Counted from the stretch's first letter, positions 11,461 to 55,844 are shown. The stretch: DNA of 64,000 nucleotides from Bacillales bacterium UBA5348 (GCA_002411005.1 DHQC01000003.1:4086-68085); one strand, 5' to 3'. The notes: a model not told the origin generated them from the sequence alone. Made by a program: numbers and translations.

Positions 11461-12565
11461 GATTTCCTTTAAGAATATAATCCGCTAATAAAGTGGTAAT
11501 ATTTCCAGATACATTAGCGACATATTTACTCTTAAAATTTCTTATTAAGTTAAAATCATATTGTTTCTTATTTAAACTGTACATTAATTCATAAGCTGAC
11601 TTAAATACACATCCCGGCATTTCTTTATATAAATCAATGTTTAGTCCGTTCTTTTCTATATATTCTGAATAATCATAAACATAAAAATATACTGGTTTTT
11701 CAAGGATAGCAGCTTCAATAGAAATAGCCGAATAATCAGTTATTACATAATCAGCTATCGTAAGTAACTCTAAGGCTGTAAATTCCTTGCATCTATATAC
11801 TCGATCATTCGAAAACTTTATTTTTTTACTTGGATGACTTTTGATAATTAAGTTATATTTACTTAAATTAATTGAATTAATCAATCCCTTTACATGATTA
11901 CTTTCATTAGTTCTAAAAGTTGGTACATACAAAATCACTTTTTTACTATTAAGTTTTGGATAAGCTTTATGAATTTTATTTTTAATTAATTTTTGATTAT
12001 TAACTAAATAATCAATTCTTGGTAACCCTAGCGAAATTAATTTATCAAAATCAGCATTAAAAGCCTCACTAAAATAAGGAACCATAGCAACTGATCCAGA
12101 TATTATTACATCATAATTTTTATGCATATCCATCATTTTAGATACTTTAATATTTCTGCCAGATTCTTTTCCTAAAGTTTGATATCCAAACTTCTTTATA
12201 GCTCCTAAAGCATGCCAAATTTGAACTACTTTCAAATCACGCTTATGGTTCAATATACTTATTGGAATTATATAGGAATCAATAATGCATGTTTTAGAAG
12301 TCGCTATATGGTACATTTGTTTTAACATAAAAAAATAGAATTTTACTCCTCCTATAAAATCTTTATCTAGCTTTCTAGATAACATTTTTATTTTTAAATT
12401 CTTATTCTGTAATAACAATTCCTTCGAGAGTAATTTAAAATCCAACGAAGCAAAATCAGACTGACGGCTTAGGAAAGTGATTTTATTATTATTGGTCGGA
12501 AATAACTTTAAAAAAAAGTAAATAAAACGCAAATGATATTTAAATAAATATAGAAGCATTGCCAT
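11399..12565 (-). CDS. CDP-glycerol glycerophosphotransferase, TagB/TagF family (primase-like, short form)
   Basis: 388 aa with QIWHALGAIKKFG, VPTFRTNE and ITDYSAISIEAAILEKPVYFYVYD motifs. Confidence 0.75.
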   Translation of the reverse strand: MAMLLYLFKYHLRFIYFFLKLFPTNNNKITFLSRQSDFASLDFKLLSKELLLQNKNLKIKMLSRKLDKDFIGGVKFYFFMLKQMYHIATSKTCIIDSYIIPISILNHKRDLKVVQIWHALGAIKKFGYQTLGKESGRNIKVSKMMDMHKNYDVIISGSVAMVPYFSEAFNADFDKLISLGLPRIDYLVNNQKLIKNKIHKAYPKLNSKKVILYVPTFRTNESNHVKGLINSINLSKYNLIIKSHPSKKIKFSNDRVYRCKEFTALELLTIADYVITDYSAISIEAAILEKPVYFYVYDYSEYIEKNGLNIDLYKEMPGCVFKSAYELMYSLNKKQYDFNLIRNFKSKYVANVSGNITTLLADYILKGNLGEVNDESKEKIKKTFVKSI

Positions 12566-37014: not shown

Positions 37015-37395
37015 TTATGGTGTTGTATAAATAATTGTTCCCACAGTCACTTCGTATTTATTCATAGATTTTACTAAGATAGATACTTGAGTATTTAAGG
37101 AAATCTCTTTATTTTCTCTCTTATCAATCAATGGAGGTTTTAAATCCCCTGTATCAACTAAATCCTGTAATGTAATAGTAACGGTATTACCAATTGTAGT
37201 ACTTCCCGGAATTAATTCTTTATGTTTTCTGACATATAATTCGGTTGTATTTTCAATGTTATCAATTAAATTTTCAAAAGAGGCTTCCCTCGTACGATTT
37301 ACATTATCAATAACCACAGGAACCGTAATAATAGATAAAACTCCTAAAATGATTATTACCGCTAATAATTCAATTATTGTAAATCCTTTTTTCAT
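37015..37395 (-). CDS. Type IV pilin/pseudopilin-like protein (ComGC/PilA-like N-terminus)
   Basis: 126 aa. MKKG|FTIIELLAVIIILGVLSIITVPVV is a class III leader plus the conserved E5 residue. Confidence 0.75.
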   Translation of the reverse strand: MKKGFTIIELLAVIIILGVLSIITVPVVIDNVNRTREASFENLIDNIENTTELYVRKHKELIPGSTTIGNTVTITLQDLVDTGDLKPPLIDKRENKEISLNTQVSILVKSMNKYEVTVGTIIYTTP

Positions 37396-37561: not shown

Positions 37562-37993
37562 GTGAAAAGATTTTTAAAAGCAACATTACTTACATTTGTC
37601 TTTTCTTATCTAACATTTGGTATGCCTTTGGTTTTTGCCCAAGATCCAACTAATCCTGATGGTACTACTAATAATAATGGTACAATCATTGATGATGGCA
37701 CAGACAATGATAATAATTTAAATAACAATCTTAGTCCTGACGATAATGATTTAAACAACAATCCAACGGATGATCGTGATTTAAATAATGACAATAATGA
37801 TGATGGTATAATTAATGATAATAATAATGATGACGATGATTTAATTAATGATAATGATAATGATCCTATAGAAGCGGCTGAAGACAATGACTTTGGTGAG
37901 AATCTACTATGGGGTGTTGGCGGTGCAATTATCGGGGCAATAGTTACATATTTCTTAGTTAGAGACAAAGATGACGTTACAGTTGTTAAATAA
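37562..37993 (+). CDS. Secreted, C-terminally membrane-anchored acidic Asp/Asn-rich low-complexity protein
   Basis: Signal peptide (MKRFLKATLLTFVFSYLTFGMPLVFAQDP), ~90 aa of D/N-rich degenerate repeats (DNDNNLNNN, DDNDLNNN, NDNNNDDDDLINDNDND) and a C-terminal TM helix plus short basic tail. The DNA shows degenerate gataatgat-type repeats. Confidence 0.6.
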   Translation: MKRFLKATLLTFVFSYLTFGMPLVFAQDPTNPDGTTNNNGTIIDDGTDNDNNLNNNLSPDDNDLNNNPTDDRDLNNDNNDDGIINDNNNDDDDLINDNDNDPIEAAEDNDFGENLLWGVGGAIIGAIVTYFLVRDKDDVTVVK

Positions 37994-38028: not shown

Positions 38029-38032
38029 ACAA

Positions 38033-38062
38033 AAAACAAACCAAATTGGTTTGTTTTTGTTT
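38033..38062 (-). terminator. Rho-independent terminator after pgi (also functional on the + strand)
   Basis: The acaaacc-aaat-tggtttgt hairpin is flanked by A- and T-runs. Confidence 0.6.
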
Positions 38063-38066
38063 TTAT

Positions 38067-39278
38067 TTAGTTCATTAACTCTTTCATAACATTCTTGTAT
38101 TCTTCTACGCCCTCTTGATCAAAAGGATTAACGTTTTCTAGAAAACCACTTATATAACAAGATATCATAAAGAATTGGAATAAATAACCTACTAATTCTT
38201 CATTTAATTCTTGAATATTAATAACATTGTTTAAAACTCCACCCTTTAAATGAGCTATTGATGTTGCTTTAGAGGCAATATTATTTATATCATTTAGAGA
38301 TTTTTTATATTGTTCTAATTCAAGGTCGTTATTAGATCGTTCAACATTTAAGACCGTTTCAAACAGTATTTTATTTCCTTGTTGAACAAATTGTCCTAAT
38401 GAATGTAAATCTCTTGTATTGATAAATGATACTGGTAAAATACCTTGTTCATTTTTACCTAAAGATTCACCATATAATTGTTTTAACCATTCAGTAAAAG
38501 CATATAACTTTGGTTCATAAGCAACATAAGCTTCAACTGTTTTTCCTTGCTCATTTATAAGTTTTCTAATTACAGCATATTTAATTTGATTGTCAAGATT
38601 ATTACTAGCCTCTTTAGCGCCCTTATAAATATTTCTTATATTAATATTAGAAACAGCCATCGGTAACAAACCAACAGGAGATAAAACAGAGTATCTGCCT
38701 CCTATATCACTTGGCATAATAAATGATTTGTATCCATGGATATTTACTTCTTCTCTTAAAGAACCATTATGTTCATCAGTTGTAATAATAATTCTTTTCT
38801 TTAACTCAGATTCATCATATTTTTCTTTCATTAAATCCATAATGATTTTATATGACACTAAAGTTTCTAAAGTAGAACCAGACTTTGATATAACATTAAC
38901 GATTATACGCTTGTCTTTTATAATATTGATTAAATCATGATAATAATCACTAGATAAATTATTTCCTACGAAATATATTTTAGGATTATTTGTTTCATTA
39001 TAGAAATAAGGATTTAAAGCTTCTATACCTGCTAAAGCACCTAAATAAGAACCACCTATTCCTATCACGATAAATACATCACAATTATTACGAACAAATA
39101 AAGAGGTCAAATTAATATCTTCAACTAATTCTTCATTAAAAAGGTTGTCAAGATTATACCAACCTAACATATCACCTTTTCCTAATGAATCTTTTATTGA
39201 GGATACTTTAGCTGTATATTCTTTTAGTTGATCCTCACTTATGAAATCTTTGGTATAAGTATCAAAATCAAATCTCAT
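38067..39278 (-). CDS. pgi: Glucose-6-phosphate isomerase
   Basis: 403 aa. PGI family signatures (GIGGSYLG, SKSGSTLET). Its start ATG overlaps the stop of the upstream giant gene (TAATGA). Confidence 0.85.
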   Translation of the reverse strand: MRFDFDTYTKDFISEDQLKEYTAKVSSIKDSLGKGDMLGWYNLDNLFNEELVEDINLTSLFVRNNCDVFIVIGIGGSYLGALAGIEALNPYFYNETNNPKIYFVGNNLSSDYYHDLINIIKDKRIIVNVISKSGSTLETLVSYKIIMDLMKEKYDESELKKRIIITTDEHNGSLREEVNIHGYKSFIMPSDIGGRYSVLSPVGLLPMAVSNINIRNIYKGAKEASNNLDNQIKYAVIRKLINEQGKTVEAYVAYEPKLYAFTEWLKQLYGESLGKNEQGILPVSFINTRDLHSLGQFVQQGNKILFETVLNVERSNNDLELEQYKKSLNDINNIASKATSIAHLKGGVLNNVINIQELNEELVGYLFQFFMISCYISGFLENVNPFDQEGVEEYKNVMKELMN

Positions 39279-42200
39279 TATACATCCTCCTTCATGGTAA
39301 TGATAACACGATGTTCTTTTTTATCATCCACTAACTTAATTACATTATCTTTTACTGGCATATTATCTAATACAACAGCTATTTTACCACTTGCAATATG
39401 ATTTTTGTTTTCTACTTTAATTATATATTTAGTATTTAAATAAGTATAGTTGATTTCATAACCCTCCCAATCTTTATTTATTCTTGGATTTAAGGTTAAA
39501 GTATCTCCTACTTTATTAAATCCTAAAATATCTTCAAGACCAATTTTATAAGCCCAACTAGCAGAACCTGTATACCATGTCCAGCCACCTCTACCTAAGT
39601 GATCGCGGTTAGAATATATATCAGCAGCGATAACATAAGGTTCAACCTTATAAACATCCGCTACAACCTTAGATGATACCCTATTAATCGGATTAATCAT
39701 TTGGTAGTATTCATAAGCAAGATCTGCCTTACCATCTTTTAAGAGAGCTAAAATATACCATAAGGCAGCATGCGTATATTGTCCACCATTTTCCCTCGTA
39801 CCAGCAACATAATCTTTTATATAACCAGGATTATTGTTAGTATCTTTAAATGCTGGAGTTAACAGTTTTATTATTTTATTTTGTTTATCTACTAATCTTT
39901 TCTCTACCTCACCAAACAAAAGAGCTTTTTTATCATCTGCGGCAAAATTACTAATGACACTCCATGATTGACATAATAAATCTATTTGACATTCCAAATT
40001 ATTTCTTGAACCAAGAGAATCACCATTATCAAAGTAGGCTCTTAAATACCATGAACCATCCCAAGCATTCTTCTTTAAGGCTTCGCCTAAAACATCTCTT
40101 TTTTCCAAACATAACTTTGCAAAATCTTTATCATTATATTTTCTAGAAATAGCAGATACTTTTTGTAAGATATCATATAAGAAGAAACCAACAAAGACAC
40201 TCTCTCCTCTTCCTTTATGACCAACTCTATTCATTCCATCATTCCAGTCACCACTACCCATTAATGGTAAACCATGTCTTCCCATTTGACTTAAAGCTTT
40301 CACAATTGATAACTTCAAATGACCATATAGTGTGTCCTCTTCATCAATATATCTATATCTGATACCCTTTTCAGATTCTATGATAGTTAGTTTTTCACCA
40401 TCAACAAATGGTACTTTTTCATCTAAGATAGAAAAGTCACCCGTTACTTTTAAATATTCATAAGTAACATAAACTAACCATAAATAGTCATCAGTGAATT
40501 TAGTTCTTGAACCAAACATAATTTCTTCATGCCACCAGTGAAGGACATCTCCCTCTTTAAATTGATGTTTAGCATGAGTTAATATTTGATTTCTAGTAAA
40601 AGATGGATCACTGTAGACTACTCCCATAACATCCTGTAATTGATCTCTAAAGCCTATCGCACCACCTACTTGATAGAAGCCCGCTTTCGCTAATAACCTT
40701 GATGCATATGTTTGATATAAAGCCCAACCATTTAGAGCATAATCAAATGTTTTATCTGGGGTTGAAACAGTAATGGTTGATAATAATTTATCCCAATACT
40801 TAGTTACTGTTAAAAACTCATTATTGATTGCTTCATTATTATATTTTTTAAGTGATGCAGAAACATTATCACAACCAAGCATAAATGAGAATGTTTTGTT
40901 TGAGGATGCCTCTACTTCAACATTTACAGTTACACTTTTATTAATAATATCAGAATCATTAAACTCAATAATTGGTTCTGTCGCAGATACAAAGACACTT
41001 GCATCATTAAAGGTTGTATTATATTTATTCTCTACATATAAACAATTATTCTTTTTATCAAAACTAGAAGATATAAAACGACTAGTAAGTTCTTCCGTAA
41101 CACCTAACACCATACTTAAGACTAAATCAACTTTAATCATTTGTTTTGTTTTTAAATTGTTTTTAATGTTTATTTCATAGAATTTAACATTATCATTACG
41201 TGCTACAAAGACTTTAACAAAGGCTTCATATTCTTTTGTTTTGCTGTAGAATGTTGAATATCCAAAACCATGTTTAACTAAACTAGGTTTAAAGCTTTGA
41301 TTATTTATAACGATGTTTTCACTACGGGGATCCCTCGTTGAGTCATTACTCCATGAGGTTAGTTTAAACTCTCTACTATTATAAGCATAAGTAAAACCAC
41401 CCATATTATTACTTACAATGGTTCCAAAATTATCATTCGCGATAACATTAACCCAAGGTGTTGGAGTGTCTATTTTATCAAGTATATATTCTCTACCGAC
41501 ATTAGTAAAACCACCATAACCATTATATAATTCTACATCCTTAGGTAATGCTACTTCTAAACTAACAGCATCTTCATTCTTATTTGAAATAAGTTTAACC
41601 TCATCAATCAGATTATAAGTTTGTTCTGCAAATGAACTACTACTTGAAGCATTTAAAGAAATAGATGCTACTAAGTTTAATAAGACACGTTCTTCTTTGC
41701 TTATATTTGAAGAAGATACTAAGAAGACATCACCAGGTATACCCTCAAAATTATTTGAATTATTAATTTGATATAACAACAAATTAATATGCTCACTAAT
41801 AGCCTTTTCATTAATATCTTGATTATTATTAATAATAATAAAATCAATCGCAAGGGCTCTTACTTTGTAAAACTCATATGCTTGTAAAGCCTCTTTCACA
41901 AAACCAATATCTTCAATCTCATCAATCTCTATTAAAATAATCGGCCAATCACCTGATATACCAAACTTCCATAATCCCTCTTGTGATAATTGATTTGACG
42001 CAAGTAGCTTCTTTCTTTCTTCAGTTGATGGTAATGATTGGAAAATATATTTTAACATCGTATTATATAAACGCATTTGATTAGCATTTAAATTAGCATA
42101 TTTAGTTCTAATATTATTTAAAACAGTTGCCATATCAAATGCTCTATCAATTGAGAACTCATCTTTATATTCATTTACAATTTCCATAACTTGTTCTCTT

Positions 42201-45200
42201 GATTTACCAAAACCAACAAGTATATAAAGTTTTACTTTTTCTTTAGCTTTAATCGTTATTCTTTTTCTAATACTCATTATTGGATCAAGTGACGCTCCTG
42301 TTAATTTAGATAAATCCTTTTTGTTAACTATAAGATCAGGATTTGATAATGTTCTATTACGACCAATAAAGTTCGCTCTAGAAGTTTCATAAAGAAATGA
42401 ATCATATTTTTCATCTTCCATAAACATTCTATTAATTACATAATATCTAGTATTTCCTTTTGTTCTAGATTTTCTACTAAAGATTAATGATGATGTACCC
42501 TGATCAATCTCACTTAAAATAGTTAAGCCATTAAATGCTCTATGAGCAACATCTTCATCATTACGACTCATAATAACTTCACCATAAGAAGTAACTTCTA
42601 ATGTAACATCATTATTTGAATTGTTTTGAAAGGTTACTTTTCTTAATTCAGCATTATAATCTTTTACAACCGTAATTTCCGTACTAGTTATAATATTATC
42701 ATCTTCTCTTAGATATTTAATACGGTCTGAAGCGAAAGTTACCTTATAATTATTTGGTTTAACATTTAAAGGAGCATAGGTATTAGACCACACTTTATTA
42801 TTATTAAGATTTCTAATATATAAGAATAAACCATAGTCATCATCACTGACTTTCCTAAATCTATTTATTTGAAGATTCTTATATTTACTAAAACCATTAC
42901 CTCGATCATTTAATAAAACTGAATAAAAACCATTTGATAAAACACCAAGTTCAGATATTTGATTTATAGTATCTACTTCTCGCATATCATTTTCTTGTTT
43001 TTCTTTTGAATATTGATATTTTTTATATTTAGCAATCTTCAAATCAATATAAGTTTTAATTTGAACTTTTTCTTTAAGAAGCATCTCAATAGATTGAACA
43101 GTCTTATCATCGTGGAAATGTTCTTGTATAACATTATCTTTCAAATAATTAGTAAGACTTGCTAAAATCATACCTTGATGATGAGCATAATAATTTTTAA
43201 TAACAACATCATCATCGTAATCATAAGCTTCAAAGAAGCCATATTTTCCATACATATTTAGTTTCTTTAGTTTGTTTATATTATCATATACTTCTCTATC
43301 ATCAATCCCAATAGCCATGATTGAACTATATGGAGATATAACAATAGGATAAGAAGCACTCTCTTGAAATTTTAAATATGGAATACCAAATGAATTATAT
43401 TTATAGTTTTGAGAATCATCTAATTCATTATAAGCAGATTCTGATATACCCCAAGGTAGATCTGGATCTATTTCTCTAATAAACTCTCTCTGAGCAAAAT
43501 AAGCATAGTAATAGGTTTCATCTAACAAAGTATGTTGATAAGTCTTCATAAAGATTAACGGCATAAAGTATTCAAAAGCAGTTCCAGACCAAGAAGCTAC
43601 ACCTTTATAACGTTTATACTTAGTTAAAGCTTTGTCTAAACAAAACCAATGTTTATATGGGACATTTCCCTTCGCAATAGAAATAAAACTTGTAAGTCTA
43701 GCTTCTGATGCAAAATTATTATAATGATATGAAAGCAATGTTTGTTCACTATAATTATAACCAATACTAAAGACGTCTAAATCTTTATTATATAATTTAG
43801 TGAAATCCATTTCTTCGATTAACTTTTCAACACGAAACAAAGTCTCCCTATTTCCTTGTTTTTCTAAGAAACTCTTAGCAACATATAAGCACGCTAATAA
43901 ATTACCCGTATCGACGGTTGATATAAAATATGGATGCATTTTTCTCATTGTATAAATGTTATACCAGTTATATAAAAGACCATTCCATTTTTCTAACTTT
44001 TCAACGCTTTTTACAATATTACTAATCATTGTCACAGCTTTATTACTATTTATTAAACCTAACTCAAAGACCGATACAACACTAACGATAGAGAATCCTA
44101 TATTAGTAGGAGATGTTTTATGATCGACCTTTTCTTCTCTGTTTAATTGATAATTGTCAGGAATTAAATAATTATATTCTTCACAAATTAAATCATCAAA
44201 ATAACTCCATGTTTGTGTAGCAACATTCATTATCTCAGCTGTTTCTCTCTTATCAAGATCTTTGTTATCCTCTACTAAATTACGACTAATTAAGAACAGT
44301 AAAACAGGAGCTAAAAACCAAATAATTGCAATAACACAAGCAAGTTCAATCTCAGTAGGTTTAAAGATAACTGCTAAAACAATTAATAAGACAGCACAAA
44401 GATAATTTGTTCTAAAAGCTTTCATATATGTAGATAAATTATTTTTAAGTGTCTTTTCAACCTCTTCAGCTGTAATCCAATTAAGTAATCTCTTTTTACT
44501 TATAAACATACGATATAAAGCTTTTATAATCGAATCAATATATAAATAAGCTTCATAAGGAAGAACTGCTAAAACAATTAAAGATTTATTTATAACAGCA
44601 AAAACACCCTTTATTAAATTAAGATAATACTTTAAGAACATATCATATTTATTTCGATATAAAATCTTGGAAATTAAGTAGAAGAAGATTGGAATCATAA
44701 TTATGATTGATACTAAAATTAAATAAGCAGAAGCATTACCATTGCCAATCGTAAAACCATAGAAAATAAGTAACAGTAAGAAAGGACTTAATAAACTTCT
44801 TCTTAAATTATCAAAGATCTTCCATTTAGAAAGAATTGATATAGGATTATTAACAGTTTCTCCCTTAGCATTTTTAACTTTTTTCTTAAGCCAACCAATT
44901 ATTTGCCAGTCTCCTCTATTCCAACGATGATGTCTTGAAGCATCATTTAAATAAGCGCTTGGATAATCATCAAATAATTCGACATCATTAATAAAGCCAC
45001 ATCTTAAATAATTACCCTCTAATAAGTCATGACTTAAAATAAGATTGTTAGGAAAAGCATCACCTAAGACTTGATCAAAGACCTCTAAATCATAAATACC
45101 TTTACCAACAAAACTACCCTCATTAAAGATATCTTGATATAAATCAAATGACGCTGTGGTATATATATCTAAACCACCTAAACCAGCAAATAATTGAGAA

Positions 45201-46975
45201 TATTTTGATTTACTAGTAACCTCAACATCGACATTAATTCTGGTTTGCATAATCCCATAACCACTTACAACCTTGTCTTTCTCTTCAGATAAAACAGGTC
45301 TATTAAGAGGATGAGCCATCGCACCAATCAATTTAAAGGCCGTATTTAGTACTAATTTAGTATCTGTATCTAATGTTATAACATACTTAATAGGAACATT
45401 AAGATTACTAAAAGTATGACAATTAAAATATTCTTTCTTTTCTTTATCCGTTAATTTATTTAATAACAATTTATTAAAATGATGAAGAGCTCCTCTTTTT
45501 CTTTCAAAACCCAAGAAACATTCTTCACCCTCATTATAAAAACGATTACGATAAACAAAATAGAAAATATTCTTACCATATTTCTCATTTAATTCACTAA
45601 CTTTAGAAAGCCCAGCCTCGATGATTTCTTTATCTACTTCAACATCTTTAACCTTCTCACTCGTACAGTCTCCTAGTAAGGTAAAATAAAGATTATCTGT
45701 TTTATTAGATAAATAATAAAGCTCTAAACTATCAAACATTTGTTGTACTTTCTTTTTATTACTAAGAAGCGTTGGTATTACAACCATCGTACTAAATTCC
45801 TTAGGCAAGCCATCATCAAACTTCACTTTAAATAAGCTGTTAACATTATCATAATGCATTAATATTTGAGTAATAGATTCAATAACTAAGCCACTAATAG
45901 GTACTAATAAAATAAAGAATGATATCATACCCGCATGTTTTGCAATCTCAAACGATAAAATGAAAGTTAATAATAAAATAACTAAAATATAGATTCTAGC
46001 TCTAAACATATAATTCTTTGGTTTGGATAAATACCAACCTACATGTTGTTTCTCTTTATTAGCAGTTTCTACAATCTCTTTAGTATATTCATATTCACTT
46101 ATGTTTCTTTTTCTAGCATTTAAGATTATTTTTTCGCGATATTCTCTCTTACTATTATCAAAGATATTATTATAAACATTAGCATTTTCACTTATCAAAG
46201 TCTTTTCTGCATAATTTGTATTTTTATATAAATCTTCAATCTTATATTTAGAAACTTTCTTTAATGAACCAAATAAATTAATCATTAAAAAGTTATCACT
46301 AGCCATTTCATTATGTGACTGTTCAATTAACTCTCTTAATGATAAATTTTCCTTTTTTAATAATTCATTTAATTTAACAAAGGCTGCATCAGCTAAAACA
46401 CCTAATTCTTTTAATTTATAATTAAGTTCTTCAATATAATAAGGATGTTTTATCATTTCCTCATCGATATCTATGTATTTTTCTAATTCAAAAGATTCAT
46501 CACCTATGTTATTCGCAACCACAGTAAAAAGATGATCAACATCAGCTTTTTCATTTAGTCTCTCATCTAATCTTTTACATAATACATTTAATTCAGAAAT
46601 TAATACCACTTTTATATAAGTATATATTACATTGATTTCATAATAAGAAAAATAATCTTTTGTTTCTTCTTGATAAATATTTAATTTATCTATTAAAGAT
46701 GGCATTTTAACTTGAAAATCATTAGTCTTAAGAATGTTATATATTAAAGCATATAGCGCTTTCTTTCTTTTACCTTTCATTTGTTTCATTACTTTGCTAA
46801 GATATTCATCACTAATATTTTTTTCTTGTTCACTAATTATATAATAATTATCAATAAGCCATTCATTAATACCACCAATACTTACATTTTCTTTGGTCTT
46901 CCTTATTAACTTTTTATAATATTCGGTAATTTCTCGCATTTCTCTTTTAAAATTTATTAATCCCACTCTACTCAT
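39278..46975 (-). CDS. Giant multidomain glycosyltransferase-glycoside phosphorylase (GT84-like + GH94-like); cyclic beta-1,2-glucan synthase (Cgs/NdvB/ChvB)-like
   Basis: 2565 aa. N-terminal cytoplasmic region, TM cluster, a GT domain with DxD (ITLDTDTKL) and a (Q)xxRW-like RHHRWNRGDWQ motif, a second TM cluster, a central (alpha/alpha)6-like region, and a C-terminal GH94-type domain (HWWHEE..., GQYTHAALWY, GRGGWTWYTGSASW). Confidence 0.6.
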   Translation of the reverse strand: MSRVGLINFKREMREITEYYKKLIRKTKENVSIGGINEWLIDNYYIISEQEKNISDEYLSKVMKQMKGKRKKALYALIYNILKTNDFQVKMPSLIDKLNIYQEETKDYFSYYEINVIYTYIKVVLISELNVLCKRLDERLNEKADVDHLFTVVANNIGDESFELEKYIDIDEEMIKHPYYIEELNYKLKELGVLADAAFVKLNELLKKENLSLRELIEQSHNEMASDNFLMINLFGSLKKVSKYKIEDLYKNTNYAEKTLISENANVYNNIFDNSKREYREKIILNARKRNISEYEYTKEIVETANKEKQHVGWYLSKPKNYMFRARIYILVILLLTFILSFEIAKHAGMISFFILLVPISGLVIESITQILMHYDNVNSLFKVKFDDGLPKEFSTMVVIPTLLSNKKKVQQMFDSLELYYLSNKTDNLYFTLLGDCTSEKVKDVEVDKEIIEAGLSKVSELNEKYGKNIFYFVYRNRFYNEGEECFLGFERKRGALHHFNKLLLNKLTDKEKKEYFNCHTFSNLNVPIKYVITLDTDTKLVLNTAFKLIGAMAHPLNRPVLSEEKDKVVSGYGIMQTRINVDVEVTSKSKYSQLFAGLGGLDIYTTASFDLYQDIFNEGSFVGKGIYDLEVFDQVLGDAFPNNLILSHDLLEGNYLRCGFINDVELFDDYPSAYLNDASRHHRWNRGDWQIIGWLKKKVKNAKGETVNNPISILSKWKIFDNLRRSLLSPFLLLLIFYGFTIGNGNASAYLILVSIIIMIPIFFYLISKILYRNKYDMFLKYYLNLIKGVFAVINKSLIVLAVLPYEAYLYIDSIIKALYRMFISKKRLLNWITAEEVEKTLKNNLSTYMKAFRTNYLCAVLLIVLAVIFKPTEIELACVIAIIWFLAPVLLFLISRNLVEDNKDLDKRETAEIMNVATQTWSYFDDLICEEYNYLIPDNYQLNREEKVDHKTSPTNIGFSIVSVVSVFELGLINSNKAVTMISNIVKSVEKLEKWNGLLYNWYNIYTMRKMHPYFISTVDTGNLLACLYVAKSFLEKQGNRETLFRVEKLIEEMDFTKLYNKDLDVFSIGYNYSEQTLLSYHYNNFASEARLTSFISIAKGNVPYKHWFCLDKALTKYKRYKGVASWSGTAFEYFMPLIFMKTYQHTLLDETYYYAYFAQREFIREIDPDLPWGISESAYNELDDSQNYKYNSFGIPYLKFQESASYPIVISPYSSIMAIGIDDREVYDNINKLKKLNMYGKYGFFEAYDYDDDVVIKNYYAHHQGMILASLTNYLKDNVIQEHFHDDKTVQSIEMLLKEKVQIKTYIDLKIAKYKKYQYSKEKQENDMREVDTINQISELGVLSNGFYSVLLNDRGNGFSKYKNLQINRFRKVSDDDYGLFLYIRNLNNNKVWSNTYAPLNVKPNNYKVTFASDRIKYLREDDNIITSTEITVVKDYNAELRKVTFQNNSNNDVTLEVTSYGEVIMSRNDEDVAHRAFNGLTILSEIDQGTSSLIFSRKSRTKGNTRYYVINRMFMEDEKYDSFLYETSRANFIGRNRTLSNPDLIVNKKDLSKLTGASLDPIMSIRKRITIKAKEKVKLYILVGFGKSREQVMEIVNEYKDEFSIDRAFDMATVLNNIRTKYANLNANQMRLYNTMLKYIFQSLPSTEERKKLLASNQLSQEGLWKFGISGDWPIILIEIDEIEDIGFVKEALQAYEFYKVRALAIDFIIINNNQDINEKAISEHINLLLYQINNSNNFEGIPGDVFLVSSSNISKEERVLLNLVASISLNASSSSSFAEQTYNLIDEVKLISNKNEDAVSLEVALPKDVELYNGYGGFTNVGREYILDKIDTPTPWVNVIANDNFGTIVSNNMGGFTYAYNSREFKLTSWSNDSTRDPRSENIVINNQSFKPSLVKHGFGYSTFYSKTKEYEAFVKVFVARNDNVKFYEINIKNNLKTKQMIKVDLVLSMVLGVTEELTSRFISSSFDKKNNCLYVENKYNTTFNDASVFVSATEPIIEFNDSDIINKSVTVNVEVEASSNKTFSFMLGCDNVSASLKKYNNEAINNEFLTVTKYWDKLLSTITVSTPDKTFDYALNGWALYQTYASRLLAKAGFYQVGGAIGFRDQLQDVMGVVYSDPSFTRNQILTHAKHQFKEGDVLHWWHEEIMFGSRTKFTDDYLWLVYVTYEYLKVTGDFSILDEKVPFVDGEKLTIIESEKGIRYRYIDEEDTLYGHLKLSIVKALSQMGRHGLPLMGSGDWNDGMNRVGHKGRGESVFVGFFLYDILQKVSAISRKYNDKDFAKLCLEKRDVLGEALKKNAWDGSWYLRAYFDNGDSLGSRNNLECQIDLLCQSWSVISNFAADDKKALLFGEVEKRLVDKQNKIIKLLTPAFKDTNNNPGYIKDYVAGTRENGGQYTHAALWYILALLKDGKADLAYEYYQMINPINRVSSKVVADVYKVEPYVIAADIYSNRDHLGRGGWTWYTGSASWAYKIGLEDILGFNKVGDTLTLNPRINKDWEGYEINYTYLNTKYIIKVENKNHIASGKIAVVLDNMPVKDNVIKLVDDKKEHRVIITMKEDV

Positions 46976-47066
46976 AATTACCTCCTTAGTATTTTTTATA
47001 CTTCTCTATTATACCATTCATTTGCTTAACCTTCAAATAAATAAACTACAGGTATAATTCACAGAA

Positions 47067-47348
47067 TTATCTTAATTTAAAAACTAGGTTTTCTTTTAAT
47101 ACTTTACTACGGCCAACTAATTCTTTATTATCCCACCCTATGCATTTACTGCCGTTATCACCAGTTTTTTCATAAGGTGGTATAGGACAACCCTCATTTA
47201 TACAATTAAGACAGTTTATGCCAAATAAAGCACGTTTAAGACTTCGATATTCAGTTATAGACAATTGAGCAGCTGCTTTCATGTAGAATTCACTTTCATC
47301 TTCAACAATATTTCTGATAATTTCAAGCAATTTCTTTTCCTTTGACAT
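47067..47348 (-). CDS. Small Cys-rich protein of unknown function (paralogue A)
   Basis: 93 aa, helical N-terminal half. The C-terminus reads GINCLNCINEGCPIPPYEKTGDNGSKCIGWDN...GRSKVL. It is 58% identical to paralogue B. Confidence 0.55.
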   Translation of the reverse strand: MSKEKKLLEIIRNIVEDESEFYMKAAAQLSITEYRSLKRALFGINCLNCINEGCPIPPYEKTGDNGSKCIGWDNKELVGRSKVLKENLVFKLR

Positions 47349-47418
47349 GTTTAAAAACCCTCCTAAGTTAATTACATTATAGCACGCAACTATATATTTG
47401 TGTAAATTTCAATTATCT

Positions 47419-47448
47419 AAAAGGACTGCAATTACTTGCAGTCCTTTT
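47419..47448 (-). terminator. Rho-independent terminator after Cys-rich paralogue B (overlaps its stop codon)
   Basis: A 12-bp stem aaaggactgcaa/ttgcagtccttt with loop ttac, in AT-rich flanks. Confidence 0.6.
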
Positions 47449-47728
47449 ATTTTAATTTTAATATATTTCTCTCTCTTAAAACCTTACTTCTTCCAACATA
47501 TTCTCTATTTTGCCAACCGATACAACCATCACCCGCATCACCATGTTTTTCATATGATGGTACTGTGCAACAGCCATTCGTACAGTTATAACATCTCATT
47601 CCAATTAAAGCTCTTTCTATATATTGATATTCTTCAATGGATAACTGATCCGCTACGGCTATATAGAACTTTCTTTCATTTTTAATAAGATTTCTAATAA
47701 TCTCAAGCAATTCTTTTTCCTTATACAT
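47447..47728 (-). CDS. Small Cys-rich protein of unknown function (paralogue B)
   Basis: 93 aa. MYKEKELLEIIRNL...GMRCYNCTNGCCTVPSYEKHGDAGDGCIGWQNREYVGRSKVL. Confidence 0.55.
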   Translation of the reverse strand: MYKEKELLEIIRNLIKNERKFYIAVADQLSIEEYQYIERALIGMRCYNCTNGCCTVPSYEKHGDAGDGCIGWQNREYVGRSKVLRERNILKLK

Positions 47729-47839: not shown

Positions 47840-48214
47840 TTATTTCTTACTTTTTACTTTTTCATCTTTTTTATTAATAAAGAACATTACGCCACCAACA
47901 ATAAGCATGTTAGCTAAAGCTACATATAGAGATAAATACTTATAATAATCACTATTTTCATTAGATAATTTATAATTATCATATTCTAGTTTACAACGTT
48001 GATCTTTTGTTTCATCTGTTAAGTCTTTATCCTCCATATAATACTTACAATTAGCAATTTTATATTGCTCATATGTATAATTTCTACTTGGTTCCTTCAA
48101 TACCAATTCAATGATACTACTACTGACAACTACAGTAGCACCAATAAGCCAGATTAGTAAGATAGCATTAGTAATTTTAAAAATAATTTCCTTGTCTTTA
48201 CTAAATAAATACAT
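47840..48214 (-). CDS. Small two-TM membrane protein, unknown function
   Basis: 124 aa with two hydrophobic helices at residues ~15-40 and ~95-115, a charged loop and a basic tail. Confidence 0.45.
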   Translation of the reverse strand: MYLFSKDKEIIFKITNAILLIWLIGATVVVSSSIIELVLKEPSRNYTYEQYKIANCKYYMEDKDLTDETKDQRCKLEYDNYKLSNENSDYYKYLSLYVALANMLIVGGVMFFINKKDEKVKSKK

Positions 48215-48286: not shown

Positions 48287-50377
48287 TTATACCTGATTGG
48301 CAAACTTTTTTTCAACATTTTTGTATTCTTCTATTTCATTAACAAAAATTGATTGTTTACTTTTTGGAACTAAGAGATATACTTTATTTTTTGTTCTAGT
48401 TAAAGCCACATAAAAGAGTCTACGTTCTTCAGCATAATCTATTGATTCATCATTTTTTGGTCTTATTAATTTTACTAATGGCTCATCTTCAATTTTAGAT
48501 GGAAAGCCATATTTCTCATCTGATAAATTCAATAATATACAATGATCACATCCTAATCCTTTAGCTTTATGAATTGTTAAAAATTTCAAATTAGCTTTCG
48601 GATACTTTTTTGATGTTATCCTTTCACCAATTATATTAAAGAGATTATCATTTTGAATCGTATATATATCTTTTCTATATCTCCCTAGAAGCAAGATTTT
48701 GCTTTTAGGATGTCGGGAATAAATATGATTAATTATATCGTTTACAATTTTAGATCTTTGAATATCTGCTTTTCTAAAATCACTATCATCATAAATAATT
48801 ATCTCTACAGGATTATTTAAATGTTTACTTGATTTTAATTTCTTCTTAACTTGATATTCATTCTTTAAAATAAACTCACCAGCTATATCTATTAGTTCCT
48901 GACTATTGCGATAAGTGTTTTCTATTGGAACACTTTCAGCATTTTCTAAATTCTTATCAAAATCTTTAAATAAATCTATTCTAGCTCCAGAAAAACCAAA
49001 GATTGATTGCCAATCATCACCTACAGCCATTATTTTAGCATCAAATAATTTTGACATTCTTTCAACCAGATTAAACCTTTGACTAGAAATATCTTGGTAC
49101 TCGTCAATAATTAAATATTTATAATCTACTCCCAAGCTTTTCTCTTTCACATTTGGCATAACAGTATATGCTTTTATAATCATGTCATTAAAATCTATCT
49201 TTTGCATTTCTGCTAATTTCTTTTGATAGTTAATATAAAAGTCCCTCATCACTATTAATTGATCTTTTAAAATGCCTGTATTTTCTTTTGTTAGATTATC
49301 AAAATTATCAACATTAAAGTTCCTTTGTTTAAAAAGATTAATAAAGGGAATTAGCATCTTTTCAATAAATGTGTTTATATAACCATCTTTATTTGTATCA
49401 CGTAAAGTAGTAAATATTTCTTCATCACTAAGGCGATTAAATTGATAACCCTTTTTAATCAATTGGTCTTTTAAATGACTTAGATATGTTCCGTCTTTAT
49501 ATTTAGACTGCGTTATAATAAAAAGGTTTTTATTATATCCCTGGTTATAAAATTCCGTTTTTCTTTCCATCGTTTTGAGATATGATCTTAATGTCTCTTC
49601 GTCATACATATAATTATTTCCTTCTTGATCTACCCCAAAATGTTCAATATAATTTTCTTTTCCAAGTTGAGATATAAAAAAATCTGGTCGTAGCAATTTC
49701 TTTGGATCATTGTATTTTCTTTCATATTCATAATCTATTCCATTCTTATAAAGGAAATTAGCGATATCAACTTCCTCTTTCGAAGCTAGATATTCACCTC
49801 TTATTGATTTTTTATATGCTCTTCTCTTCTTTATTTGACTGTGATTATATGTTTTTAAATCAAAACCACTTTTTATCAGATTTTCATTGTAAATACTATT
49901 GTGATATTCTTCAAAATTGGAAGAGTTCTCCCACCCTTTACCAAATCTTAGAAACTTACTAAAAGAATGCTCAAATAACTTGAACTTTTCTTTATCAACA
50001 AATAACTCATCTTTTATATAATTAGAAAAAATGTTATATTGCATTTTTTCGTCTACTATTCCATTGAAGTTTTCTCCACTAGCTCTTATTATTTTCAAAC
50101 CTAAGCTATGAAAAGTATGAACATCTACTCCTTTTAATCCGAATTTATCATGAAGAGTTTTTTCGATTTCTTCTGTTACTTTTTTCGTAAAAGATAAAAC
50201 TGCTATTTCACTTTGTTGATATCCACATTTATCAACCAAATATTTAACTTTTGCAATCATGGTTGTTGTTTTACCACTACCAGCCCCAGCAACAACTAAC
50301 AGATTATCAGCATCATTTAAAATAGCTCCCCTTTGTTGTTCATCCAATTTTATATTTGGATCAACCTTTTCAAACAT
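48287..50377 (-). CDS. UvrD/Rep/PcrA-family SF1 helicase with a ~250-aa domain inserted between motifs Ia and II
   Basis: Motif I VVAGAGSGKTT and motif II IIDEYQDIS, plus later helicase motifs (TIHKAKGLGCDHCIL; VALTRTKNKVYLL). The insertion between them contains an E..D...EYE...K pattern (EEVDIANFLYKNGIDYEYERKY...LRPDFF) suggestive of an embedded nuclease-like fold. Confidence 0.7.
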   Translation of the reverse strand: MFEKVDPNIKLDEQQRGAILNDADNLLVVAGAGSGKTTTMIAKVKYLVDKCGYQQSEIAVLSFTKKVTEEIEKTLHDKFGLKGVDVHTFHSLGLKIIRASGENFNGIVDEKMQYNIFSNYIKDELFVDKEKFKLFEHSFSKFLRFGKGWENSSNFEEYHNSIYNENLIKSGFDLKTYNHSQIKKRRAYKKSIRGEYLASKEEVDIANFLYKNGIDYEYERKYNDPKKLLRPDFFISQLGKENYIEHFGVDQEGNNYMYDEETLRSYLKTMERKTEFYNQGYNKNLFIITQSKYKDGTYLSHLKDQLIKKGYQFNRLSDEEIFTTLRDTNKDGYINTFIEKMLIPFINLFKQRNFNVDNFDNLTKENTGILKDQLIVMRDFYINYQKKLAEMQKIDFNDMIIKAYTVMPNVKEKSLGVDYKYLIIDEYQDISSQRFNLVERMSKLFDAKIMAVGDDWQSIFGFSGARIDLFKDFDKNLENAESVPIENTYRNSQELIDIAGEFILKNEYQVKKKLKSSKHLNNPVEIIIYDDSDFRKADIQRSKIVNDIINHIYSRHPKSKILLLGRYRKDIYTIQNDNLFNIIGERITSKKYPKANLKFLTIHKAKGLGCDHCILLNLSDEKYGFPSKIEDEPLVKLIRPKNDESIDYAEERRLFYVALTRTKNKVYLLVPKSKQSIFVNEIEEYKNVEKKFANQV

Positions 50378-50498
50378 TTCATCAAAATACGTTTTATTTT
50401 CAACTAACTTTTGTTGTAGAATTATTTCGCTAGAATTTTCTCTATTAAGTGAGTTAATATGATCACCTCCAATTAAAACAATTGTTTTACTTAAACGA

Positions 50499-52370
50499 TT
50501 ACAAGTTGTTAAGTTTTTCTTTTAAATAGTTTTGTAGATTTTTATCTACGCAATATACATAACAACCTTTCATTCCCCTTGTCATTAGAGTTTTATATGT
50601 ATTCTTTATTATCTTGTCAGATACTTTTAGTGCTTCCTCTGGATTCCTATTATACATTGCTTTAATACCAAATAATGATTTATCAGTGCCCGCCCTTTTT
50701 GTGAAATCTGTTACTATTTGACCGTTTTCATATCTTATATCTTCACCTATTATCACACCAACATAATCGAATTCTAATCCTTGGCAAGTATGAATGCAAC
50801 CAATTTCTTTAATAGAGTCAGAATCTATTGCCCAAGTACTACTATTAGCTAAATTCCAGCTCATTCCAAAGTTATGTTCAGGTATAACAACATCATGAAT
50901 TTCACTATTGTTTTTAGCATTACTAATCCAATTCCAACAATATCCAGCGACCATTCTTGATTTATTGTTTACATCGTTTTTTTCGGATATTAATTCTTTT
51001 AATTCATTTGGATCGTCAAGCACCTTGAAATCATAATCAAAATCAAAATTATAATTAGCTGTTTCCCTAATATCTAAAACATTATCTAACCAATTTAGAT
51101 AACCATCAGACCCATTACATCTAAATTGTGATTCCAATTCTACCACTTGTATTTCCGCATCTAATTGCTTTGCATATTTTTCTATAACATCCAAACTACC
51201 AATATCTGAAAGAGTTACTTTTTGATTCTCATCTAAAAAAAATACAGAAAATTTTGAAGCATGTATAATTTCTTTAATTTGATTCTCACCCTTGTTTTTA
51301 AACATGCCTGATTTGGCATTTAATCTATGTGCCTCATCCACGATCAATGCATCAAATATATTTTTTTCGGAATCCACATACATTCCAGAGCCTTTAAATA
51401 AGTTCTTTATGTAACTAGCTTTAAAATTACCTTTTAATCTATCATAAAAAACATTTCTAGGTGCAGCATTCTTAGTAATATAATTAGTAACCATATTTTT
51501 ATTTGTTAATTCAACTAATAAATTAATGGCCAAAACCGACTTTCCAGTACCTGGTCCACCATTTACTACTAGCACCCTCTTTTTTTTATCATTATAAGAC
51601 TTATTAGCCAAATCTAAGGCTGTCTCATATACTACTTTTTGCTCATCAATCATAACAAACTCTTTGTTACCATTTAACATGTTCTTTAATGAATCTTGCA
51701 GTCTTCTTGAAGGCCTGATCTTACCGTTTTCTATTTTATATAACAGTTCCTTATTATCACCGTATGTAATATATTTCTTTATAAATTCACGCAGTTTAAG
51801 TACATCACCCATACCAAATAATGGAGCATCATCGATATACTCTTTATACATTTCGTCCACTAACGCATCAGTTGGAGTAATTTTATAATTATGTAAATAT
51901 GCACAAGGATACAAGTTAATTAATTCTTTTTGAACCGATTCGTTAAAATCCATTATTAAAGAAGCATACGACCAAGCCTGATAAGAGGGGTGAGTTACCT
52001 CTCTAAACCCTCCACCAACAAAGGTTTTAACGAGGCCATCCCTTCCCTCAACTCTAGCGCAAGTATCCCACTGCTTTAATTCAATTATTATTACAGAATC
52101 CTTATTATTTTTATCATACCCAGACAACATGAAGTCAACTCTTTTTGAAGTTGATGGAATATTAAATTCAATTGCAACACCAGAATCATCAGGTATTTCA
52201 TTATCATTTAACACTTTATACATATATTCCATCGAATTCTTCCAAGATTTGATTTGAGCTTCTCCACTTCTTCCAAAAAATTTTTGATATTTTTCATGAA
52301 TCTTTCTGGTTATATTATCAGTTAAAACATCATTAATAAATCCTTGTTTAATTCCCTCGTATACTAACAT
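50499..52370 (-). CDS. PD-(D/E)xK nuclease-like N-terminal domain fused to a DUF2075/SF1-type P-loop helicase (Nhi-like nuclease-helicase)
   Basis: The N-terminal region RVDFMLSG...VIIIELKQW matches a PD-(D/E)xK-like D...ELK motif. The C-terminal half has Walker A VNGGPGTGKSVL and Walker B/DEAH IVDEAHRLN, with later SF1 helicase motifs (TIHTCQGLEFDYVGVI, MTRGMKGCYVY). Confidence 0.65.
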   Translation of the reverse strand: MLVYEGIKQGFINDVLTDNITRKIHEKYQKFFGRSGEAQIKSWKNSMEYMYKVLNDNEIPDDSGVAIEFNIPSTSKRVDFMLSGYDKNNKDSVIIIELKQWDTCARVEGRDGLVKTFVGGGFREVTHPSYQAWSYASLIMDFNESVQKELINLYPCAYLHNYKITPTDALVDEMYKEYIDDAPLFGMGDVLKLREFIKKYITYGDNKELLYKIENGKIRPSRRLQDSLKNMLNGNKEFVMIDEQKVVYETALDLANKSYNDKKKRVLVVNGGPGTGKSVLAINLLVELTNKNMVTNYITKNAAPRNVFYDRLKGNFKASYIKNLFKGSGMYVDSEKNIFDALIVDEAHRLNAKSGMFKNKGENQIKEIIHASKFSVFFLDENQKVTLSDIGSLDVIEKYAKQLDAEIQVVELESQFRCNGSDGYLNWLDNVLDIRETANYNFDFDYDFKVLDDPNELKELISEKNDVNNKSRMVAGYCWNWISNAKNNSEIHDVVIPEHNFGMSWNLANSSTWAIDSDSIKEIGCIHTCQGLEFDYVGVIIGEDIRYENGQIVTDFTKRAGTDKSLFGIKAMYNRNPEEALKVSDKIIKNTYKTLMTRGMKGCYVYCVDKNLQNYLKEKLNNL

Positions 52371-52372
52371 AA

Positions 52373-52699
52373 TTATTCTCCTAATTTATTGTACTTAGTA
52401 CTTACCCCTTTAGATTTTTCAACAGGATATTTTAATTTACTTTTTTCTAACTTATCTAAAATAATTTGATCTAAATCTACATTTAATTTATCTGCTAATA
52501 AGATGCAATAATTAGCAACGTCGGCAAGTTCGTCGCATACTTCCTCTTTATCAAAATTACTGTTCCATTGAAAACATTCTAATAATTCTCCAGCTTCAAT
52601 AGAAATAGATTTAGCTAAGTTTTCAGGGCTATGAAATTGATCCCAATCTCTTTCCTGATTAAAATTAAGTATTTGTTCCTTTACTTCCATGTTAATCAC
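52373..52699 (-). CDS. MazG-like nucleoside triphosphate pyrophosphohydrolase (all-alpha NTP-PPase, YpjD-type)
   Basis: 108 aa. EAGELLECFQW...DELADVANYCILLADKLNVDL...KYP are the metal-binding EExxE/D motifs of MazG-type NTP-PPases. Its start lies 3 nt after the stop of the nuclease-helicase gene, so the two are operonic. Confidence 0.65.
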   Translation of the reverse strand: MINMEVKEQILNFNQERDWDQFHSPENLAKSISIEAGELLECFQWNSNFDKEEVCDELADVANYCILLADKLNVDLDQIILDKLEKSKLKYPVEKSKGVSTKYNKLGE

Positions 52700-52852
52700 C
52701 TATTTATATTATATCATATAAAAATATAATTTCTAAGCTTTTGTAAATTTGTGTTCAACAAAAAAGATATGCCTACACATACCCTCTTCTCTTCGTATTC
52801 GATTCTACAAGACTATAATCAAAATAATTTTAATTATTTATAACATCGTCAA

Positions 52853-53431
52853 TTATTCCTTCAGAACATCTTTTATTATTTTTCTTATTTCAACAATTCG
52901 CCTCTTCTCAAATTCAGGATGATCCATAAACCATTTCATATTTAAGGGGGACGGATGTGGCAACACCAAAGCCTTTTTACCATTTAAAACATTATCCTTA
53001 AATACTAAAGTAGCAAAATCTTCATTAGGAAACAAATATTTTGCAGCATAACTTCCAACAATGACATATAATTTACATTTAACAAGTTCCAGTTCCTTTT
53101 TTAGCCATAAATCCCGACAGTTTTTAGAAGGTGGATTATCTTTACCGCTTTTGTTTTTACCTGGATAGCAATGACCAACAGAGGTAATATAAAAATTGTC
53201 TTCATTATAAAACTCTTCATCGGTTATTTGATACCATTGATACTTTAATCTTTCACCACTTGCATCATTAAATGATCTTAATGTTAAATGAACATTTTTA
53301 GATGGTGCTTGTGAAATGTGCATTATTTTAGAATTAGTTTTTCCAAATGTAACAGGATGCGGGGTAAAACCAAAACGTTCTGCACATAAACGGCATTGTT
53401 TAATTTTTTCCTTTAATTTTTCAAGTTCCAC
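52853..53431 (-). CDS. Uracil-DNA-glycosylase superfamily protein (family 4/5-like)
   Basis: 192 aa. N-terminal CRLC pair; a motif-A-like SQAPS; the motif-B hallmark of the UDG fold, LVLPHPSPLN. Confidence 0.6.
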   Translation of the reverse strand: MELEKLKEKIKQCRLCAERFGFTPHPVTFGKTNSKIMHISQAPSKNVHLTLRSFNDASGERLKYQWYQITDEEFYNEDNFYITSVGHCYPGKNKSGKDNPPSKNCRDLWLKKELELVKCKLYVIVGSYAAKYLFPNEDFATLVFKDNVLNGKKALVLPHPSPLNMKWFMDHPEFEKRRIVEIRKIIKDVLKE

Positions 53432-55678: not shown

Positions 55679-55757
55679 TGGTGTCCCCTGGGGGATTCGG
55701 ACCCACGACCCACTGATTAAGAGTCAGTTGCTCTACCAACTGAGCTAAGGAGACACG
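55679..55757 (-). tRNA. tRNA-Lys (anticodon CUU)
   Basis: The reverse complement folds as a cloverleaf: acceptor GTCTCCT/AGGGGAC, D-arm GCTC/GAGC, anticodon stem ACTGA/TCAGT with loop CTCTTAA (anticodon CTT), T-arm GTGGG-TCCGAAT-CCCCC, discriminator A, encoded CCA. The T-loop has C at position 55 and a U50-C64 mismatch. Confidence 0.7.
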
Positions 55758-55767
55758 TAATACACTA

Positions 55768-55844
<77 letters not shown>

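Follow-up and report, generated by a model that had tools for sequence, protein, structure and literature searches.

Identification of a probable compact cyclic glucan synthase

[quoted passage not shown] The predicted enzyme would polymerise, trim and cyclise beta-1,2-glucan, and it would be co-expressed with the glucose-6-phosphate isomerase (Pgi) encoded directly downstream. We assign this reading a probability of about 0.8, which refers to the family and its activities; our confidence in ring formation is somewhat lower. Because the protein is collinear over its full length with a characterised Cgs and retains every residue implicated in catalysis, it is likely a Cgs-family enzyme that uses UDP-glucose, and its most likely product, judging from the sequence, is cyclic beta-1,2-glucan made in the cytoplasm.

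The cgs open reading frame (ORF) spans positions 39278..46975 on the minus strand, starts with ATG and encodes 2565 amino acids. The GC content around the gene is 26–30% in the window (a single value of 28% was also obtained). Since stop codons are frequent at such a low GC content, chance can be ruled out as the origin of a 2565-codon frame. The initial annotation of this DNA had proposed a giant ORF of this length and position, with no strand given, and had quoted several motifs in it. The ORF is present, and so are all of the motifs: LDTDT at residue 535, RHHRWNRGDWQ at 681, GQYTHAALWY at 2398 and GWTWYTGSASW at 2464. The proposed order of an N-terminal cytoplasmic region, a first membrane cluster, a glycosyltransferase, a second membrane cluster, a central barrel and a C-terminal phosphorylase-like domain also agrees with Pfam, the alignment to PDB sequences and hydropathy.

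Homology to Agrobacterium Cgs and conservation of catalytic residues

In a PDB sequence search, the Cgs of Agrobacterium tumefaciens (AtCgs; cryo-EM entries 8rf0/8rf9) matched the protein with 1320 bits (E = 0). The alignment consists of three ordered stretches across residues 12-2524, in which residues 12-307, 371-1034 and 1050-2524 correspond to AtCgs 65-359, 462-1116 and 1259-2806, respectively. The kinship with Cgs/NdvB/ChvB enzymes suggested at the outset is thus borne out by a full-length homologue in which GT84 is followed by an (alpha/alpha)6 cyclase domain in the centre and by GH94 at the C-terminus. The description as a close counterpart of the proteobacterial enzymes is overstated, as the identity is only about 28-35%.

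Profile searches cover part of this architecture. Pfam identified a Glycoamylase domain at residues 1086-1289, GH94_b-supersand in two stretches (277 bits) and Glyco_hydro_94 at 2060-2485 (379 bits). No Pfam model matched the N-terminal 900 residues or GT84, and no NCBIfam model matched the protein. A Kyte-Doolittle scan with a 19-residue window, a simple scan with no topology predictor, revealed two peaks at residues 321-373, two at 727-774, one hydrophobic stretch at 785-817 and two more at 851-902. These correspond to a six-helix anchor flanking the glycosyltransferase domain with two helices on one side and four on the other, in the 2+2+2 arrangement of AtCgs. In AtCgs, six transmembrane (TM) helices are described, with an extended stretch between TM4 and TM5 (PMC10901819).

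The residues with experimentally assigned roles in AtCgs, including Y694 with its covalently attached glucan primer (PMC10901819), and in the cyclase of Thermoanaerobacter italicus CGS (TiCGS), where E1356, E1400, E1442 and H1536/H1537 were studied (PMC10834661), were mapped onto the protein. The chain index of 8rf0 follows the native AtCgs numbering, as checked on the DAD motif. In the GT84 domain, the UDP-binding residues D527 and D624 of AtCgs correspond to D436 and D536. The positions of the inactivating mutations D624/D626/D739 correspond to D536, D538 and D650, with D536 and D538 forming the DTD motif and D650 the equivalent of the catalytic base D739, and the RW motif (R773/W774) is found as R684/W685. 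The primer tyrosine Y694 aligns with Y605, within GGLDIYTT here and GIDPYVF in AtCgs, and is the putative site of glucosylation. In the GH189 domain, the TiCGS nucleophile E1442 and acid/base E1356 are matched by E1179 (WGISES) and E1091 (ASEAR), the pKa-tuning E1400 by E1135 (FEYFMP), and H1536/H1537 by H1265/H1266 (AHHQGM). In the GH94 region, which carries R2110/D2111, D2246 and H2402, D2111 (GFRDQLQD) is the counterpart of AtCgs D2393, and D2246 (GDWNDG) that of the catalytic acid D2528. All mapped residues of GT84, GH189 and GH94, together with Y605, are identical to those of the reference enzymes and invariant in an alignment of 12 homologues with 48-74% identity.

The compact GH189 cyclization domain

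The central domain is a member of GH189, a family defined in 2024 on the cyclase domain of Cgs with the T. italicus enzyme as its founding member (PMC10834661). The structure of that cyclization domain, 8wy1, matched residues 902-1312 in the PDB sequence search (E 3.8e-106). An AlphaFold model of residues 900-1320, built from a 32-sequence alignment, has a predicted local distance difference test (pLDDT) of 76 and a predicted template-modelling score (pTM) of 0.83. The predicted fold, an (alpha/alpha)6 barrel, most resembles those of Cgs cyclase domains, with template-modelling (TM) scores of 0.80 for 8wy1, 0.76 for AtCgs 8rf9 and 0.73 for the GH144 beta-1,2-glucanases. The GH144/GH162 families first named for this domain are therefore fold relatives only (TM 0.73).

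The domain is compact. A MAFFT alignment with 15 homologues indicated that it lacks 120-210 amino acids after residue 1039, an insert shared by AtCgs, TiCGS and the majority of homologues. This insert forms a helical (4-helix) subdomain of the AtCgs cyclase barrel that contributes to dimerisation (PMC10901819); it is a typical feature of the family, but not an established defining one. Since Caloramator, Paenibacillus and an Anaeromyxobacteraceae metagenome-assembled genome (MAG) also have homologues with a short insert or none, comparison of the sequences points to a variable accessory and not to a unique loss.

The cgs-pgi junction and its conservation

The gene pgi occupies 38067..39278 on the minus strand and is the only pgi within the window. 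Its 403-amino-acid product is a glucose-6-phosphate isomerase of the Gram-positive type, as supported by family scores and catalytic motifs. The Pfam PGI model gave 79.5 bits against a cut-off of 22, and NCBIfam PRK14097 gave 426 bits, slightly below the equivalog cut-off of 443 on account of loop deletions. The Bacillus anthracis Pgi structure 3ifs was matched with E 1.4e-99, differing by loop deletions only, and the protein retains the GESxGK, HSLGQ and FDQxGVExxK motifs. At the junction (GTA TAA TGA GAT), the cgs stop codon TAA (39280..39278) and the pgi start codon ATG (39278..39276) share one base, as the overlap TAATGA in the initial annotation had implied. Together with the ribosome-binding and promoter-like sequences listed in Table 1, this arrangement suggests that cgs is probably transcribed from its own promoter jointly with pgi and translationally coupled to it. 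A hairpin after pgi is likely the end of the bicistronic transcript. The promoter and the hairpin are pattern matches in AT-rich DNA and not evidence of function; the promoter-consensus scan found 72 sites compared with 83 expected from shuffled sequences of this AT-rich region, so that it was not enriched and is uninformative. The Rfam search returned tRNAs only, with no riboswitch or leader near the operon.

To describe the neighbourhood of cgs in other genomes, ORF calling and all-against-all BLASTP of the neighbouring proteins were applied to 80 loci from a genome scan. Among these, pgi directly follows cgs only in low-GC loci (26-34% GC) of this clade; it is not behind cgs in the high-GC Bacteroidales loci or in any other phylum. 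Across the lineage the pair is kept in 12 distinct loci, with Cgs identities falling to about 46% and every other neighbour different; stop and start usually overlap. Four of these loci were reached blind, from Pgi: all four homologues examined (49-65% identity) have a cgs of 2527-2569 amino acids immediately upstream, again among differing neighbours. Within this lineage of Bacilli, cgs and pgi thus form a closely conserved module. The gap ranges from -8 to +4 nt in nine of 11 junctions, and in most of these the end of cgs contains a GGAGG-type sequence of at least GGAG. Two relatives (L007 and L009) have a spacer of 30-66 nt with a terminator-like hairpin between the genes, so coupling is not universal, and in L006 pgi lies 5.5 kb downstream of cgs.

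Apart from pgi, the only recurring neighbour in the 80 loci is a gene for a PgmG-like phosphoglucomutase/phosphomannomutase (pgm), found in a few of them and located divergently upstream of cgs in three relatives. No pgm is present in the window, where small ORFs and helicase genes occupy the corresponding position. No exporter or modification partner near cgs emerged among the 80 loci. The small neighbour clusters that recurred comprised unrelated genes of the housekeeping type (cation efflux, M18 peptidase, FtsH, a Crp-like regulator and SDR). Pgi and Pgm catalyse the two steps between glycolysis and glucose-1-phosphate, from which UDP-glucose is made and which GH94 trimming releases. A functional link between cgs and pgi is therefore plausible, as Cgs would both need this metabolite, via UDP-glucose, and give it off.

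In one relative that carries the pair (L084, a biogas fermenter contig), a gene for a small acid-soluble spore protein (PF00269; 152-313) lies beside the cgs-pgi pair. The related MAGs are labelled "Mollicutes bacterium". Because a spore protein adjoins the pair, this label is doubtful, and the lineage may form spores.

Proposed mechanism and alternative explanations

By analogy with AtCgs, we infer that one polypeptide chain carries all catalytic domains on the cytoplasmic side of an anchor of six membrane helices. The GT84 domain would glucosylate Tyr605 on the enzyme's own IF1-like loop, generating a primer, and would then extend this primer with beta-1,2-linked glucose from UDP-glucose. 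Over-long chains would be trimmed by the GH94 domain with phosphate, releasing glucose-1-phosphate. Finally, the GH189 domain, with E1179 as putative nucleophile and E1091 as putative acid/base, would move the chain onto its own end, giving a ring, proposed to contain about 17-25 glucoses, and a regenerated primer. Translational coupling would tie production of the synthase to the interconversion of fructose-6-phosphate and glucose-6-phosphate by Pgi.

Several observations weigh against this scheme. The host is an uncultured MAG and a monoderm with no periplasm to fill, and in the literature searched we found no report of a cyclic beta-1,2-glucan or a Cgs study in a monoderm, only carbohydrate-active enzyme (CAZyme) inventories and the work on the TiCGS domain. 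No Cgt/ChvA-type exporter is encoded in the window, where the only ABC system is TagGH-like, and none is linked to cgs in the 80 loci. Within the protein, the dimerisation-linked helical insert has been lost, and the model loops next to E1135 and E1179 are of low confidence. As for the operon, two relatives separate the genes by a hairpin, and pgi may be a mere single housekeeping gene of the lineage.

Part of these observations would suit a cyclase that, lacking its insert, closes no rings or only disproportionates, leaving a linear beta-1,2-glucan, which could be a polymer (capsule-like or associated with the wall) or a set of oligosaccharides. Such a product is quite unlikely in our view, given that the nucleophile, the acid/base and the pKa-tuning neighbours are all invariant, that the insert has been assigned to dimerisation and not to catalysis in AtCgs (PMC10901819), and that insert-less forms also occur in Caloramator, Paenibacillus and Anaeromyxobacteraceae; on its side stand the missing 120-210 residues that AtCgs, TiCGS and most homologues possess, the poorly modelled loops around the catalytic glutamates, and the lack of a periplasm and of a nearby exporter. 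A catabolic protein, in which imported beta-1,2-glucan or cellodextrins undergo phosphorolysis and the products pass to Pgi, is very improbable. Such a role is at odds with an intact GT84 domain that has lost neither a catalytic residue nor the primer tyrosine, with collinearity to an enzyme proven to be a synthase, with the predicted cytoplasmic placement of every domain on the six-helix anchor, and with the 80 loci, none of which links cgs to a sugar transporter or a glucosidase. What speaks for breakdown are the NCBI product names of identical and related proteins, the Pfam results, which score hydrolase and phosphorylase domains only, with no GT84 model matching, and the downstream pgi and nearby pgm, which would suit such a route.

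The significance of the operon is more debatable. It is a serious possibility, though not the one we favour, that the linkage has no meaning for glucan synthesis and that a housekeeping pgi simply rides an inherited, well-expressed transcript. The approximately 400-amino-acid Pgi, which has all catalytic motifs, is the ordinary form in MAGs labelled Bacilli, Mollicutes or Tenericutes bacterium, no other phylum among the scanned loci links the two genes, and L006, L007 and L009 depart from the tight arrangement. Against this, 9 of 11 junctions abut or overlap while the other neighbours are all reshuffled, pgm joins in three genomes, and Pgm and Pgi bridge glycolysis and the glucose-1-phosphate used and released by Cgs. 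A more specific role is also conceivable, if rather unlikely: in this lineage of uncultured, walled Bacilli with low GC, the compact Cgs might serve no periplasm and instead feed, via the conserved pgm-cgs-pgi arrangement, a cytoplasmic pool of beta-1,2-glucan that acts as a reserve or osmolyte. Carbon would flow from fructose-6-phosphate through glucose-6-phosphate and glucose-1-phosphate to glucan, and the enzyme's own transglycosylase and phosphorylase domains would return the glucan to glucose-1-phosphate at no ATP cost. If true, this would be a cycle like that of glycogen but based on a cyclic glucan, and no physiology of a cyclic beta-1,2-glucan would have been described in a monoderm before. 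Overall, a Cgs-family synthase that polymerises, trims and cyclises beta-1,2-glucan accounts best for the homology and the conserved residues.

Host and distribution of the family

The window encodes three TagF-like glycerophosphotransferases, TagD-like and TagGH-like proteins, two class-B penicillin-binding proteins (PBPs) with PASTA domains, three FemAB paralogues, a MurJ/Wzx-like flippase, Ddl, a Mur ligase, and LysM/M23 and LysM/CAP proteins. The host is a walled monoderm with teichoic acid, and the low-GC Gram-positive origin proposed initially is supported by the teichoic-acid, FemAB and PASTA-PBP genes in the same window. The wall teichoic acid cluster is located at 4018-12565 on the minus strand and contains the TagD-like cytidylyltransferase, the TagGH-like ABC-2 transporter and the three TagF-like enzymes, of which one (869 aa) is fused to a GT2 domain and another (955 aa) has two Glyphos_transf domains.

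The distribution was assessed in a scan of one genome per GTDB species. A single protein query gave no matches in the genome contigs, while an alignment query succeeded and identified relatives in at least 595 species genomes from many phyla. Among the matches listed were relatives in Bacilli MAGs (UBA1423, 64% identity; Candidatus Onthousia faecavium, 46%) and Bacteroidales (45-57%), in the cultured Firmicutes Clostridium polynesiense, Caloramator quimbayensis and Paenibacillus cremeus (32-37%), and in Chloroflexota, Planctomycetota, Acidobacteriota, Gemmatimonadota, Myxococcota and Proteobacteria (28-36%). CAZy holds 1930 GT84 entries (PMC12102758), and GT84/GH94 proteins, for example that of Caldicoprobacter, had already been recorded in published inventories of Firmicute CAZymes. 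The occurrence of such an enzyme in a low-GC Gram-positive, first described as unusual, is thus not so at the gene level, considering the at least 595 species, which include cultured Clostridia and Paenibacillus, and the founding of GH189 on a Thermoanaerobacter enzyme.

Neighbour joining of 72 full-length sequences gave a tree, rooted at the midpoint and with no bootstrap support, that placed the compact clade inside a Firmicute branch. The Firmicute enzymes form a branch of their own, unlike a recent import. Four high-GC Bacteroidales Cgs from rumen and gut MAGs (L004, L008, L011 and L016) nest in the low-GC Bacilli clade of this tree. They are 45-49% identical to the window protein and have no downstream pgi, in a comparison with L001, L002 and L025. 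This placement suggests a transfer of cgs from Bacilli to Bacteroidales. Mis-binning was considered for all Bacteroidales-labelled homologues and rejected for these four, whose contigs have 50-60% GC and lengths of 46-129 kb. Two contigs labelled "uncultured Muribaculaceae bacterium" (L007 and L017) have 26-27% GC and a Bacilli-type cgs-pgi pair, and are probably mis-binned or mislabelled.

In public databases, an identical protein occurs in NCBI "Bacilli bacterium" MAGs under the name "glucoamylase family protein"; the name given to a relative with 63% identity is "GH36-type glycosyl hydrolase domain-containing protein". Neither name reflects the function of a GT84 synthase. NCBI records of this mis-annotated family include MDD2203339.1, MDD4053726.1, MDD4411613.1 and MDD3305274.1.

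Feature coordinates and neighbouring genes

Table 1. Predicted domains of the cgs product and regulatory features of the cgs-pgi operon, with positions in the window.
Feature	Position	Strand	Basis
N-terminal cytoplasmic scaffold domain, residues 1-320	46016..46975	-	aligns with the AtCgs N-terminal domain 65-359 (stretch E 1.6e-8); weakest-matching part of the protein
TM helices 1-2, residues 321-373	45857..46015	-	Kyte-Doolittle peaks 2.26 and 2.21
GT84 glycosyltransferase domain, residues 374-726	44798..45856	-	alignment to AtCgs 462-1116, 406 bits
TM helices 3-6 and intervening hydrophobic/amphipathic stretch, residues 727-902	44270..44797	-	hydropathy
GH189 cyclization (transglycosylase) domain, compact, residues 903-1320	43016..44269	-	8wy1 match, E 3.8e-106
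C-terminal GH94 glucan phosphorylase region, residues 1321-2565	39281..43015	-	Pfam; catalytic domain 2060-2485
Shine-Dalgarno AAGGAGG of pgi	39286..39292	-	7 nt upstream of the pgi ATG, within the last cgs codons
Shine-Dalgarno AAGGAGG of cgs	46981..46987	-	5 nt before the cgs ATG, read from the sequence
Promoter-like TTGAAG, 17 nt, TATAAT with TG extension	47008..47036	-	consensus scan; position fits the 91-bp intergenic gap
Palindromic hairpin and T-run past the pgi stop	38032..38058	-	pattern scan; AT-rich stem with 3 G-C pairs

Directly upstream of cgs, two tandem paralogues of 93 amino acids (57% identical) were observed on the minus strand at 47067-47348 and 47447-47728. Both share cysteines in the pattern CxNCxN..C followed by CIGW, match no Pfam, NCBIfam or PADLOC family, and are separated by a strong 14-bp hairpin at 47418-47449. 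Beyond them lies a 124-aa ORF with no family (47840-48214). The following minus-strand block, 48287-53431, encodes a UvrD-type helicase whose best PADLOC matches are GajB-like, with no GajA seen, as well as a Schlafen-group-3/DUF2075 helicase with weak AbiO/Nhi-like matches, a publicly annotated MazG-like gene and a UDG-family glycosylase. This block adjoins two tRNA genes at 55679-55844. Since it lies at the position that pgm takes upstream of cgs in close relatives, it may be an inserted defence or repair islet.

Downstream, a 143-aa ORF on the plus strand (37562-37993) is convergent with pgi. It has an N-terminal signal-like segment, an Asp/Asn-rich low-complexity middle and a C-terminal hydrophobic helix; the public gene call favours it over an overlapping minus-strand ORF, and no family match was obtained. 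Prepilin-type N-terminal methylation motifs were observed in two minus-strand proteins, one of 723 aa (17336-19507) and a ComGC/GspG-like one of 126 aa (37015-37395). Near the cgs of L002, N_methyl and Fib_succ_major proteins were found.

Significance

Cyclic beta-1,2-glucans are periplasmic osmoprotectants and host-interaction factors of Brucella, Agrobacterium and rhizobia. Firmicutes and Bacteroidales of gut and fermenter origin carry intact synthases, which suggests an ecology wider than this textbook role and raises the question of where the ring goes and what it does in a cell without a periplasm. The window protein belongs to an established, very large family, the breadth of which can already be seen in CAZy and in recent papers. 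Its identification is of limited practical value: it corrects a poor public name ("glucoamylase family protein"), and the conserved cgs-pgi module offers a hint of metabolic coupling. Furthermore, a naturally compact synthase might be easier to express for the production of cyclic glucans.

Comparison with known systems

The closest characterised system is that of AtCgs (ChvB) and the Cgs/NdvB enzymes of Brucella and Sinorhizobium. They share the order of an N-terminal domain, two TM helices, GT84, four TM helices, the cyclase and a GH94 domain with an inserted subdomain, and all experimentally implicated residues of AtCgs, including the primer tyrosine, are kept in the window protein. The identity to AtCgs and its orthologues is only about 30-35%, and the protein is about 270 amino acids shorter than AtCgs, a difference explained mostly by the missing helical insert of the cyclase and a shorter N-terminus, together with several loops of 10-30 residues in the MAFFT alignment with 15 homologues. 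In contrast to the Agrobacterium system, this one resides in a monoderm that has wall teichoic acid and lacks a periplasm, the gene shares an operon with pgi, and no Cgt/ChvA exporter was linked or detected.

The T. italicus cyclization domain (TiCGSCy, 8wy1) is the best match for residues 903-1320 in both sequence and predicted fold, has the same catalytic set and also comes from a Firmicute. It differs by an insert of about 160 amino acids that is absent here, and TiCGS is known from the isolated domain and not from the full enzyme or an in vivo product. The GH144/GH162 endo-beta-1,2-glucanases, such as CpSGL of Chitinophaga pinensis (5gzk), share the (alpha/alpha)6 barrel and a size similar to that of the compact cyclase domain, whereas their identity is about 15% and they are hydrolases with another catalytic arrangement. 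Finally, free-standing GH94 phosphorylases match only the C-terminal ~500 amino acids (E ~1e-68), where the catalytic Asp and the GFRD and GQYTH motifs are kept. These enzymes are soluble and catabolic, whereas the corresponding domain here would act as the length-control module of a synthase.

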